64,000 bases of DNA from contig JAUWIX010000002.1 of the NCBI GenBank assembly GCA_030608005.1, positions 817 to 64,816 of the forward strand, read 5' to 3'. Under the pieces are notes generated by a model. That model searched no databases. It was given only the letters and a program-made list of their open reading frames with translations, and was not told the DNA's origin. The stretch is from Dehalococcoidia bacterium. GTDB taxonomy: Bacteria > Chloroflexota > Dehalococcoidia > Dehalococcoidales > BS750m-G39. A program made the translations under genes and the position numbers. Below, in pieces: positions 36,871 to 39,480 of the stretch (position 1 is the first letter of the stretch; each line of letters starts with the position of its first letter).

Positions 36871-37263
36871 TTAATGCAGGCGCTCCATCAGGTTGGTCAG
36901 TTCGCCAGCTATATATAGTTGCACTGCTTGGTCAATGCTTTCTACATCGGTGACAATAGGCTCAATATTGTAGCTTTTCATGCTTTCATAGGCTCCCCAG
37001 CCCATCCCCCCGGCAAGGAGAACCTGGCAGTCAGAGATAGTCTCGGCCATGCTTTGATGCCTCGTCGGTGAGTCGGCGTGGTAGCCATGGCGCTCACCGG
37101 GGGCTAAATCAGGGTGGGAGGCAAAGCTGTGGTGCCCGCTCTTGGCTCGGGTCTCCTTATTCACAATTTCGCCCTCTTCCACTGTAACCACTACATAGAG
37201 AGACGCCCGACCGAAGTGCTGGCTGATAGTCTTTCCATCATCAGATATAGCTGCAATTTTCAT
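36871..37263 (-). CDS. NifX/NifB-C-terminal-like (dinitrogenase FeMo-cofactor-binding fold, MTH1175-like) protein
   Basis: It reads MKIAAISDDGKTISQHFGRA...CQVLLAGGMGWGAYESMKSYNIEPIV, the characteristic pattern of this family. Confidence 0.75.
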   Translation of the reverse strand: MKIAAISDDGKTISQHFGRASLYVVVTVEEGEIVNKETRAKSGHHSFASHPDLAPGERHGYHADSPTRHQSMAETISDCQVLLAGGMGWGAYESMKSYNIEPIVTDVESIDQAVQLYIAGELTNLMERLH

Positions 37264-37324: not shown

Positions 37325-37555
37325 TTATGCCCTTACCATCTTTGTGCCGCACTGGGGGCAGCTCAGACTATAGCAGGGAGCTCCTACTTGGTGAGGGAGC
37401 GTGGCGCCACAGTTGGGGCAAACACAATTTCCGCTTGGGCCGGCTCCGGGGCGGGTTCCTCCCATCCTGCCACCCCCCCTTCCCCCTCGGCCAATGCCTC
37501 CCCCTCTTCCTGCACCGCCACCCGGGGGCGGACCAGTTCTGTCTCCTCTAGGCAT
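37325..37555 (-). CDS. Gly/Arg-rich protein with C-terminal C4 zinc ribbon (DUF5320-type N-terminus)
   Basis: It reads MPRGDRTGPPPGGGAGRGGGIGRGGRGGGRMGG...CVCPNCGATLPHQVGAPCYSLSCPQCGTKM. Confidence 0.6.
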   Translation of the reverse strand: MPRGDRTGPPPGGGAGRGGGIGRGGRGGGRMGGTRPGAGPSGNCVCPNCGATLPHQVGAPCYSLSCPQCGTKMVRA

Positions 37556-37571
37556 GAAACACCTCCAACTC

Positions 37572-37796
37572 TTACTCCATTGGCGGCAGCCCGCAAACGC
37601 CCGAGGTGCAGGTGGGACAACTAATCTCTGAAGACTCAGTTGTTCTTGAACTCGGGCTAAAGAAAGGGGAGAGAAGTCTTCTCGGATTTTTTGTCTTGCA
37701 CTTAGGACACTCTAACTTAGAGCCATCCTCCCCAATAGATTGACGGACTTCAAACTTCTCTCCGCACTGGGGGCACTGGTATTCATAGAGTGGCAT
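37572..37796 (-). CDS. FmdB-family zinc-ribbon protein
   Basis: MPLYEYQCPQCGEKFEV...CPKCKT is the canonical FmdB/CxxC-CxxC ribbon. It has a Cys-rich tail, CPTCTSGVCG. Confidence 0.7.
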   Translation of the reverse strand: MPLYEYQCPQCGEKFEVRQSIGEDGSKLECPKCKTKNPRRLLSPFFSPSSRTTESSEISCPTCTSGVCGLPPME

Positions 37797-37800
37797 GGTA

Positions 37801-38427
37801 TTACTCCCCTCGCTTTTCTAGCTCTTCAATGTGGCGCTGCATCTCAGCTAATTGTTGCATTAGCATCTGTGATTGTGCCTTGAGTGTCTCTAGCTCCTGC
37901 TCCGGGCTTGACGGCTGGGGTGCCGGTTCAGTCATAGGCATCATCTCTGCTCCCATGCCCATTCCTCTACCCATACCCATGCCGCGCCCCATACCTCGCC
38001 CCATGCCCATTCCTCTACCCATGCCCATACCAGAGCCCATGCCCATACCAGAGCCCATGCCCGGTCCTACACCGAAGTGAGCTCCTACACTAGGCTGTGC
38101 AGTAGCCTGTGATTGTCCCGATTTATAGGTTTGGATAGCATCACTGATTTTCCCAGAAAGGCCGGTGATTATCTGAACCCCGGCTGCTGACAATACCTGG
38201 TAGGCATTGGGACCACAGTTGCCTGTAATCACCACTTGCACCCCTTTGCTGACAATCATCTGGGCGGTGGAAATACCAGCCCCACCCCCTGCCATAACAT
38301 TGGGGTTCTCCATAGATTCGTATTGCATTGTCTCCGGGTCGGCAATGATAAAATACTGACATCTACCAAAACGAGGGTCTATATCAGCATCCAGAGTTGG
38401 ACCTGTAGCCGAAATAGCAATTCTCAT
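37801..38427 (-). CDS. NifX/MTH1175-like domain fused to a (G-M-G/R)n repeat and a DUF5320-type C-terminal helix
   Basis: The N-terminus is MRIAISATGPTLDADIDPRFGRCQYF...VVITGNCGPNAYQVL. It is followed by GMGSGMGMGSGMGMGRGMGMGRGMGRGMGMGRGMGMG and then PEQELETLKAQSQMLMQQLAEMQRHIEELE. Confidence 0.75.
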   Translation of the reverse strand: MRIAISATGPTLDADIDPRFGRCQYFIIADPETMQYESMENPNVMAGGGAGISTAQMIVSKGVQVVITGNCGPNAYQVLSAAGVQIITGLSGKISDAIQTYKSGQSQATAQPSVGAHFGVGPGMGSGMGMGSGMGMGRGMGMGRGMGRGMGMGRGMGMGAEMMPMTEPAPQPSSPEQELETLKAQSQMLMQQLAEMQRHIEELEKRGE

Positions 38428-38430
38428 AAC

Positions 38431-38754
38431 TTACCCCTTTGTCCCTAACTCACGCATTCGGGACTCAATTTGCTCCAGTTGGCTCTTTATAGTTTGGGCT
38501 TGATTCTTCAGGAAGTCAAATTCCTGCTCGGGGGTCATCTGTGGGGTGGGAGATATAGTCCCAGGAGCGGTTGTTGGCGCTCCATAAAATGGGTATGGTA
38601 TTCCTGCACCGTAATATGGATAGCCGTATCCCATCCTCGGAGGAATCCCATACGCACGAGGAGCTGCACCTATTCCCCAAGGGCTGCAGAATCCCCTACC
38701 TCCTCCTGTCATTGGTCCCATTCCTCTAGGACCCATTCCATCAAATCCTGGCAT
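38431..38754 (-). CDS. DUF5320-type low-complexity protein (paralog B)
   Basis: It has the N-terminus MPGFDGMGPRGMGPMTGGGRGFC, a Tyr/Pro/Gly-rich middle region and the C-terminal helix TPEQEFDFLKNQAQTIKSQLEQIESRMRELG. Confidence 0.7.
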   Translation of the reverse strand: MPGFDGMGPRGMGPMTGGGRGFCSPWGIGAAPRAYGIPPRMGYGYPYYGAGIPYPFYGAPTTAPGTISPTPQMTPEQEFDFLKNQAQTIKSQLEQIESRMRELGTKG

Positions 38755-38784
38755 AATCCACCTCCTTCATCAATTGTACGATAA

Positions 38785-39111
38785 TTATTCTCCTGTCCCT
38801 AACTCATGCATTCGGGACTCAATCTGTTCCAGCTGGCTCTTTATAGTTTGGGCTTGATTCTTCAGGAAGTCAAGTTCCTGCTCAGGGGTCATCTGGGGGG
38901 TGAAAGGTGCAGTCTCAGGAGCGGTTACTGGTGCTCCATAAAATGGGGAAGGTGCTTGCATTGCTGGCCAGTAAGGCGCTGTATATAGTCCGGGATACCA
39001 GCACCTAGGCAATCCTCCTCTACCCAGACCAACATAAGGCCAGGACGGAGAAGCACCTCTGAAACCGAATCCCCTTCCTCCCCGAAATCCATAGCCAAAT
39101 CCATTGGGCAT
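38785..39111 (-). CDS. DUF5320-type low-complexity protein (paralog A)
   Basis: It has the N-terminus MPNGFGYGFRGGRGFGFRG, an aromatic/Pro-rich middle region and a C-terminal helix nearly identical to that of paralog B. Confidence 0.65.
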   Translation of the reverse strand: MPNGFGYGFRGGRGFGFRGASPSWPYVGLGRGGLPRCWYPGLYTAPYWPAMQAPSPFYGAPVTAPETAPFTPQMTPEQELDFLKNQAQTIKSQLEQIESRMHELGTGE

Positions 39112-39160: not shown

Positions 39161-39394
39161 CTACCATCGGTAAGGGGTATAAGGTGGATAGTAGGCGCCA
39201 GAGTATGGGTAACCATATCCCATATAAGGAGTGGTTGCCGCATGCTGACCGGCATAAGGTGTTGCCCACCACCATCTTGGTAGCCAAGGGTAAAAGCGGC
39301 AGAAGGGATAAGGGTTACCCCTTCCCCATCCTAGACCACGTCCCCAGCCACGTCCCCAGCCACGTCCCCATCCAAACCAGCCTCTCCCTCTCAT
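39161..39394 (-). CDS. Gly/Trp/Arg-repeat, Tyr/Pro-rich small protein (77 aa)
   Basis: The ATG at 39394 follows the SD GAAGGTGA. The product is MRGRGWFGWGRGWGRGWGRGLGWGRGNPYPFCRFYPWLPRWWW...YYPPYTPYRW. The track start at 39496 lies upstream of the predicted promoter. Confidence 0.55.
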   Translation of the reverse strand: MRGRGWFGWGRGWGRGWGRGLGWGRGNPYPFCRFYPWLPRWWWATPYAGQHAATTPYMGYGYPYSGAYYPPYTPYRW

Positions 39395-39437: not shown

Positions 39438-39480
39438 ATGAACTTATGTTCATAATAATACAGTAGGTTAAGTTTGTCAA
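39438..39480 (-). promoter_or_regulatory. Near-consensus promoter (TTGACA-17-TATTAT) with overlapping palindrome ATGAAC-N4-GTTCAT for the low-complexity/NifX-like operon
   Basis: On the minus strand the -35 is at 39480-39475 and the -10 at 39457-39452. A perfect 6-4-6 palindrome is at 39438-39453. Confidence 0.55.

Follow-up and report, generated by a model that had tools for sequence, protein, structure and literature searches.

The 64,000-nucleotide stretch of Dehalococcoidia bacterium DNA analyzed here (contig JAUWIX010000002.1 of assembly GCA_030608005.1, positions 817 to 64,816 of the forward strand; hereafter the window) contains three consecutive minus-strand open reading frames (ORFs) whose products appear to end in the same helix: a 208-residue fusion protein with a NifX-like domain (37801-38427) and two short proteins of the DUF5320 family, namely paralog 1 with 107 residues (38431-38754) and paralog 2 with 108 residues (38785-39111). 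This raises the question of whether the helix is indeed common to the three proteins and, if so, what it tells us about the relationship between a cofactor-carrier fold and the free DUF5320 proteins. A preliminary description of the locus, made from the sequence alone, had taken the helix as Rosetta-stone evidence that the free proteins dock on the NifX-like protein or co-assemble with it through a coiled coil. Here we present evidence that the helix is homologous in the three proteins and that a gene arrangement common in anaerobes links them, probably in the handling of iron-sulfur or metal-sulfur clusters. We also weigh what the helix might do, and give an even chance to a split holding assembly for metal-sulfur material in which a coiled coil would join the NifX-like head to extra cationic arms.

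The C-termini originally quoted for the three ORFs match the minus-strand coding sequence exactly. The pattern drawn from them was sound in that the motif is common to all three proteins, but its spacing was off by one residue in two places; the corrected common pattern is EQE-x3-LK-x-Q-x6-QL-x2-(I/M). All three proteins belong to PF17253 (DUF5320), with 71.0 bits for paralog 1, 44.2 bits for the fusion and 34.3 bits for paralog 2 (the gathering cut-off being 27 bits for the whole-protein score), and the fusion additionally belongs to PF02579. The helices excised as isolated segments of 41-42 residues match the model at positions 65/66-99 with e-values of 1e-3, 2e-4 and 1.5e-4. For profile comparisons the helix was cut as a 30-residue segment out of 120 homologues of each kind, fused and free, leaving 93 unique sequences per set. 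Comparison of the two profiles with hhalign aligned all 30 columns with a probability of 98.4% (e-value = 9e-15), and the consensus sequences of the two sets are 40% identical. Helix-only hidden Markov models (HMMs) were likewise run against all 18,603 six-frame ORFs of the host genome, an assembly of 1.12 Mb that is 87% complete: the fused-helix HMM recovered both free paralogs (e-values 3.5e-6 and 2.8e-5; next decoy at 0.89) and the free-helix HMM recovered the fusion (e-value 7.3e-7; next decoy at 2). These three ORFs are the only carriers of the helix in the entire genome. The preliminary description had made its proposal hinge on the helix similarity being significant in profile comparisons, and both the hhalign result and the cross-HMM searches bear it out. 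Short amphipathic helices are prone to spurious matches, and weak matches to unrelated coiled-coil families do occur (e-values from 1e-3 to 0.1), but a likeness due to chance or generic coiled-coil composition is refuted, and retains a practically negligible probability, given the helix-only Pfam matches, a PF17253 model that spans the helix in all three proteins, the hhalign e-value and the gap of four to six orders of magnitude over the decoys. Moreover, a set of polar residues, E2, Q3, E4, K9, Q11, Q13, Q18 and R25, is near-invariant in both the fused and the free helix subfamilies; hence the similarity extends beyond generic coiled-coil composition.

The helix has what is expected of a coiled coil: four or more heptads, hydrophobic residues at the core a/d positions and an absence of helix breakers. 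With L5 placed at position a, the core reads L, S/A, L and I/M at the a positions and L, L/M, I and L at the d positions. Across both helix sets L, I, V, M or F occupy 87% of the eight a/d positions as against 4% elsewhere, and proline or glycine does not exceed 3.7% inside the helix; the hydrophobic periodicity of the fused set is 3.53 residues. An AlphaFold2 model of the fusion built with an alignment of 89 sequences predicts a globular N-terminal region (residues 1-110, predicted local distance difference test score (pLDDT) ~96), a region of pLDDT <50 (residues 117-171) and a C-terminal helix of 33 residues (175-207, pLDDT 83-90). The heptad-like character first ascribed to the helix is thus upheld by its four heptads, the conserved a/d core and the predicted structure.

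Examination of the fusion revealed that what follows the NifX-like head is more than a helix. The head (residues 1-110; 38098-38427) contains a PF02579 domain at residues 13-102 (e-value = 6.6e-25, 87.7 bits) and is modeled with confidence as an alpha/beta NifX fold, in agreement with the cofactor-carrier fold originally proposed for it. Its closest solved relative by sequence is the orange protein (ORP) of Desulfovibrio gigas (PDB: 2WFB; e-value = 1.6e-20), to which Foldseek superimposes it with a template modeling score (TM) of 0.90, a root-mean-square deviation of 1.3 A and 40% identity; matches to ORP, TM1290, PH0822 and MTH1175 together span TM 0.75-0.90. The PF17253 match occupies residues 118-203 and corresponds to model positions 10-99. 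Accordingly, the earlier picture of one helix fused to a head holds as far as the helix goes (residues 172-208; 37804-37914), but misses the roughly 60-residue cationic Gly/Met/Arg linker ahead of it; the fused piece is larger than the helix because the low-complexity-and-helix part of PF17253 is included. This linker (residues 111-171; 37915-38097) is a (GMGR)n-like low-complexity stretch of 61 residues with an isoelectric point (pI) of 11.5, comprising 22 glycines (36%), 15 methionines (25%) and 4 arginines, and it is followed by an acidic helix. Matches of the linker in the PDB to Met-rich loops of multicopper oxidases and to ribosomal S10 tails (e-values 1e-4 to 3e-3) were judged to be compositional.

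The two free proteins combine the same type of tail with distinct heads. Paralog 1 matches PF17253 over model positions 1-99 (e-value = 2e-19; 1367 homologous clusters) and carries the N-terminal motif of that model, MPxxDGTGPxGxGPxTGxGxGxC (model positions 1-25), in the form MPGFDGxGPRGMGPMTGGGRGFC, which we term a type-1 head. Paralog 2 and the fusion bear other heads: that of paralog 2, of type 2, reads GFRGASPSWPYVGLGRGGLPRC, and its PF17253 match begins only at model position 10. In both free proteins the N-terminal region is Gly-rich, aromatic and cationic (pI 9.4 and 9.7) and contains a single cysteine, and the acidic helix comes after it (38437-38532 in paralog 1, 38797-38886 in paralog 2). 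The two head types recur in the related loci described below, where type 1 (DGTGPxGxGPxTG...C) is found in 38 ORFs and type 2 (SPxWPYxGxGRGGxPRC) in 36. At the DNA level the last ~165 nucleotides of the two paralogs are ~93% identical (38431-38600 and 38785-38950), whereas their 5' halves are unalignable. Given this 3' identity as against the separately conserved head types, the 3' halves have been homogenized in this lineage, and gene conversion appears to have been limited to the tail here and in close kin. The same homogenization is seen in four close relatives (L012, L021, L024 and L090), whereas in most other loci the helices of the paralogs are only 30-50% identical.

To place the fusion in a wider genomic context we examined a class sample of 151 genomes and a set of related loci. 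DUF5320 scores above the cut-off in 18 of the 151 genomes, all 18 of which also have PF02579, and in 17 of these the same strand carries a PF02579 domain no more than 600 bp away, which is either fused (ORFs of ~195-216 residues) or encoded by a neighboring gene of its own; the only genome that departs from this has the locus at a contig end. The host genome conforms to this pattern, with all of its three DUF5320 and two PF02579 matches located in the operon under discussion. The related loci are the best 80 of at least 535 species-level loci, drawn from one-genome-per-species contigs, that encode close relatives of the fusion; they come mainly from metagenome-assembled genomes (MAGs) of Dehalococcoidia, with others labeled as Deltaproteobacteria, Aerophobetes, Acidobacteriota, Planctomycetes and Clostridia. 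Of these 80 loci 63 are fused, and a NifX-like head with a low-complexity arm and the helix behind it is encoded in 65. Among the 60 fused loci that could be evaluated, which come from several phyla, the ORF immediately upstream of the fusion is free and bears the helix in 56. The remaining NifX-like tails consist of a Gly/Arg arm only (5 loci), an arm with a six-Cys ribbon (1) or short and other extensions (7); a complete NifX-like ORF is absent from the fetched locus in 2 of the 80. The connection of the NifX-like fold with DUF5320 that the preliminary description posited on Rosetta-stone grounds is strongly supported by the fusion recognized by Pfam, by the adjacency in 17 of 18 genomes and by the upstream free ORF in 56 of 60 loci.

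The genes flanking the module in the 80 loci code for two CbiA+Fer4 ATPases (68-69 loci), a second NifX-like protein (72), Mrp (66), a 76-residue Cys-rich protein (61), DUF134 (58), a zinc ribbon (47-49) and NifU_N (35). This set matches the gene content of the ORP operons of Desulfovibrio (Orp3/Orp4, Orp8 and MrpORP). Nitrogenase genes were found neither in the operon nor in the related loci, which have ORP-type and Fe-S assembly genes instead; likewise, the NCBIfam nifX model TIGR02663 (cut-off 112) does not match the fusion and gives 22.6 bits for the second NifX-like protein of the operon. The fusion shares the PF02579 fold with NifX, NafY and NifB, and Foldseek matches it to NifX in NifEN (9IAN) and to NafY (1P90), yet these observations indicate that it is not a NifX proper.

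The helix itself is widely dispersed as a modular tail. Searched against 1.84 billion proteins, a helix profile of 36 positions recovered 1733 representatives of clusters formed at 50% identity, and in nearly all of the best 150 matches the helix ends the protein. It stands behind at least six head types besides the NifX-like one, among them two more Fe-S domains, namely PF04060 (in P0064) and a 2x[4Fe-4S] ferredoxin together with a type-2 head (in P0325); the others include the type-1, type-2 and type-3 (LTGLPGWMRFG) peptides and Trp/Tyr-rich heads. P0241 contains two DUF5320 helices in tandem within one protein. A truncated PurE domain followed by the helix (P0245) is probably a chimera of assembly or gene calling and was not counted as a head type. 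The recurrence of the helix behind at least six other heads, two more Fe-S domains among them, lends the functional link good support. The domain architecture as such has already been catalogued automatically, and the helix is not new as an object: DUF5320 is a listed family of archaea and anaerobic bacteria whose model covers the helix at positions 66-99 and merges distinct heads (type-1 DGTGP, type-2, type-3 and Trp/Tyr-rich) on one tail. In control searches the family was also recovered from Methanosarcina acetivorans and Thermotoga maritima.

The closest studied systems are the orange protein of Desulfovibrio and IssA of Pyrococcus. In the orange protein (ORP, or Orp8) an anionic Mo-Cu-S cluster is bound non-covalently. 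Desulfovibrio has an ORP complex of Orp3, Orp4, Orp5, Orp8 and MrpORP, proteins of which bind Fe-S and Mo-Cu-S clusters (PMC6345978). Besides having 2WFB as the nearest structure to its head, the fusion resembles this system in that the related loci carry the two CbiA+Fer4 ATPases, the second NifX-like protein and Mrp in the order of the orp operon. It differs in that ORP is a single domain of 120 residues without arm or coiled coil, whereas the fusion has a 100-residue extension, and in that the operon of this genome lacks the ATPases and Mrp found in 66-69 of the 80 related loci. The ORP literature examined describes no DUF5320 partner, and two ORP papers do not mention DVU2105 or DVU2107. 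IssA (PF2025 of Pyrococcus furiosus) is an iron-sulfur storage protein with a NifX-type IPR003731 domain and a cationic Gly-rich tail proposed to bind or wrap anionic thioferrate (Vaccaro et al. 2017; PMC5524996). The fusion likewise has a NifX-type domain followed by a disordered cationic Gly-rich segment, and the free single-Cys proteins of the operon, rich in Gly/Trp/Arg and aromatic residues, recall the make-up of the IssA tail. On the other hand, the fusion has an acidic coiled coil at its C-terminus, its arm is Met-rich rather than Trp-rich, and the cationic arms come here partly from separate genes. The NifX-like tails with a Gly/Arg arm only, seen in 5 of the 80 loci, resemble the uncharacterized tails of the 'IssX' type (PMC5524996). 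At best, the fusion would work like ORP or IssA, and we assign it to neither system.

These comparisons suggest the following model. The DUF5320 module has three parts: a head that varies, a disordered arm that is cationic and Gly-rich, and a helix of ~30 residues with four heptads; at this locus the tail is carried by one orange-protein-like NifX-fold head and by two short, conserved single-Cys peptide heads. The most likely role of the helix would be oligomerization, by which a NifX-like head and several cationic arms could be bundled into a multivalent assembly that holds or passes on anionic iron-sulfur or thiometallate material, in effect a split version of the IssA design of a NifX domain plus cationic tail, operating within ORP-type machinery. 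We favor this model, at the even chance given above, because ORP and IssA frame the function and the evidence fits a common oligomerization tail; the pairing of the helices, the mixing of free and fused chains in one oligomer and the metal-sulfur cargo are all things we infer. Its significance lies in DUF5320 being among the most consistently linked of the uncharacterized families near NifX-like and ORP-type genes in anaerobes, and in the connection that the module would make between the ORP complex and iron-sulfur storage by IssA, neither of which is well understood. With a defined anatomy and three independent fusions to Fe-S-related domains, it yields a concrete and cheaply testable hypothesis. 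A bolder version strikes us as rather unlikely: the DUF5320 tail would be a universal zipper by which interchangeable heads (NifX/ORP-like, ferredoxin, PF04060 and short Cys-bearing peptides) and cationic disordered arms build, in bacteria and archaea, an IssA-like particle or condensate that stores or channels thioferrate, Fe-S fragments or thiometallates. If true, it would amount to a widespread and unrecognized split-part iron-sulfur storage system of anaerobes.

As to the pairing of the helices that such an assembly would need, we also modeled paralog 1 and the fusion as a single chain, which their common reading frame allows when the intervening stop is read through, with an alignment of 15 paired and 97 unpaired rows. 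Relative to the fusion alone, the pLDDT of its helix rises in this chain from 83/90/79 to 94/94/90, and the helix of paralog 1 (residues 75-106) reaches 88-94; the rise is only a hint of pairing. The N-terminal motif of paralog 1 has a pLDDT <50 and is thus predicted to be disordered, so that the model gives no prediction of paralog 1 docking onto the NifX-like domain, and Foldseek searches with the read-through model returned NifX-fold matches only. The preliminary description had offered docking and co-assembly side by side. Co-assembly via a coiled coil is plausible, considering the four heptads and the confidently predicted helix. A general docking of free DUF5320 proteins on the NifX-like protein through the helix is ruled out, since NifX-like genes without the helix adjoin free DUF5320 genes in several relatives.

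Several observations weigh against a split holding assembly. Those same relatives, in which a NifX-like protein that has a Gly/Arg arm but no helix, or is tail-less altogether, is encoded beside a free DUF5320 gene, do so in the first place. Single-chain AlphaFold2 models give no more than a hint of helix pairing, and the e/g and core positions, in which no signature of heterospecific pairing was apparent, would accommodate self pairing as well as mixed pairing. The helices of the fused and the free type form two ancient subfamilies, each conserved separately, and do not co-vary within a genome. By the operational rules for IssA (an IPR003731 domain with <5 Cys, pI >=9 and a Gly content of 20% or more over the last 40 residues; PMC5524996), the fusion with its two cysteines lies within the first limit but, with a pI of 5.2 and 2% Gly, outside the other two, whereas its internal linker alone has the strongly basic, Gly-rich composition given above. 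A literature search for DUF5320 turned up two passing mentions and no study of its function. Finally, the host operon has no ATPase genes, the Orp3/Orp4-like pair being on another contig (C20:4838-6531; 73-79% identical to the pair of the related locus L006), and Mrp was not found in the 87%-complete host genome, nor were DUF134, DUF364 and NifU_N. The copy in this window is an ordinary, somewhat reduced example.

The alternative that survives best is that the helix serves self-association only, each protein being homo-oligomeric and the likeness of fused and free helices reflecting the descent of a mobile tail. In its favor, the two types differ consistently at nine positions (7, 10, 16, 17, 20, 21, 23, 24 and 27) and each is conserved across phyla; the helices show neither co-variation nor concerted evolution within genomes, fused and free helices of one genome being 0.392 identical as against 0.399 for those of other genomes (p 0.91); and the low identity of the paralog helices within most loci points the same way. 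However, the fused and free genes lie close together in the 56 of 60 loci, where their translation is probably coupled, and both types share the same register and the same e/g residues. The g-to-e' pairs, E4-K9, Q11-x16, Q18-x23 and R25-E30, fit self and mixed parallel pairing alike, so that mixed pairing is not visibly excluded; furthermore, the score of the fusion helix is higher with paralog 1 present. We consider self-association alone unlikely.

A second alternative holds that the helix is a docking tag for a third partner, such as the Orp3/Orp4-like CbiA+Fer4 ATPases, Mrp or a regulator, which would recruit each tailed protein independently. Some of the near-invariant polar residues lie off the a/d core (E2, Q3 and Q13, as well as the g residues Q11 and Q18), suggesting a surface recognized by some partner, and the ATPase and Mrp genes accompany the module in most of the related loci. 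Yet in this operon and other reduced clusters the tailed proteins persist although no ATPase genes adjoin them, an a/d stripe of this kind typically marks helices that bundle with one another, and an interface for such a partner was not identified, making this quite unlikely. Finally, the function of the low-complexity Arg/Gly/aromatic proteins could lie outside metal-sulfur chemistry, for instance in binding nucleic acids as RGG proteins do or in forming condensates with a chaperone-like role; their genes would then be linked to the NifX-like ones for regulatory reasons. Their composition does resemble RGG and aromatic sticker sequences, and a DnaJ-domain gene lies downstream in the window. 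This gene recurs in only 3 of the 80 related loci, however, while three different Fe-S-related domains are covalently joined to the same tail and the conserved neighbors are Fe-S assembly genes; we regard such a role as very unlikely.

Returning to the locus itself, the split holding assembly that we favor would be encoded in a minus-strand operon preceded by a promoter-like site (TTGACA-17-TATTAT; 39452-39480), recognized by consensus match only, with 11 of 12 positions agreeing. The three helix-tailed ORFs lie in one reading frame, separated by 30 and 3 nucleotides, each with a ribosome-binding site (RBS) ahead of it. A free DUF5320 gene and the fusion gene likewise share a frame across gaps of 9-18 nucleotides in 26 of 56 loci (the L012-L091 set), where ~19 of 56 would be expected by chance (roughly p 0.03, ignoring relatedness); this excess could stem from genes that split and joined repeatedly, or it could mean nothing. 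The first gene of the operon (39161-39394; ATG at 39394, with an RBS ahead) codes for a 77-residue protein rich in Gly/Trp/Arg and Tyr/Pro, which has a pI of 10.2, one cysteine and no helix. A 161-residue protein of another genome (P0368) joins the corresponding head, GRGNPYxFCRFYPWLPRWWW, to a DUF5320 helix, so that the 77-residue protein is another head of this modular family, one that has here lost its tail or never had one.

Downstream of the fusion the operon codes for an FmdB-type zinc-ribbon protein of 74 residues (37572-37796; PF09723, e-value = 3.2e-16), followed by the 76-residue protein (37325-37555) whose counterparts occur in 61 of the related loci and which has an MPRGDRTGP head, a Gly/Arg tract and a six-Cys ribbon. 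Its N-terminus shares the motif MP(R/G)xD(R/G)xGP with paralog 1. Among the relatives its gene usually stands directly before the two CbiA+Fer4 ATPase genes, which is the position of orp5 in Desulfovibrio. The single related locus with a ribbon-ended tail, from a Dehalococcoidales MAG (L055:3188-3814), encodes a NifX-like domain and Gly/Met/Arg arm that end in the six-Cys ribbon rather than in the helix, and constitutes a second Rosetta-stone link, connecting the NifX-like head to the 76-residue protein. Next comes the gene for the second NifX-like protein (36871-37263), of 130 residues and tail-less (PF02579, e-value = 6.9e-16), beyond which lie genes for a thiamine-binding-fold protein, the DnaJ-domain protein, a methyltransferase, TauE and a radical SAM enzyme. 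The second NifX-like protein contains a His-rich insert, HHSFASHPDLAPGERHGYHADSPTRHQS, inside its domain, which is a possible candidate for a metal-binding loop.

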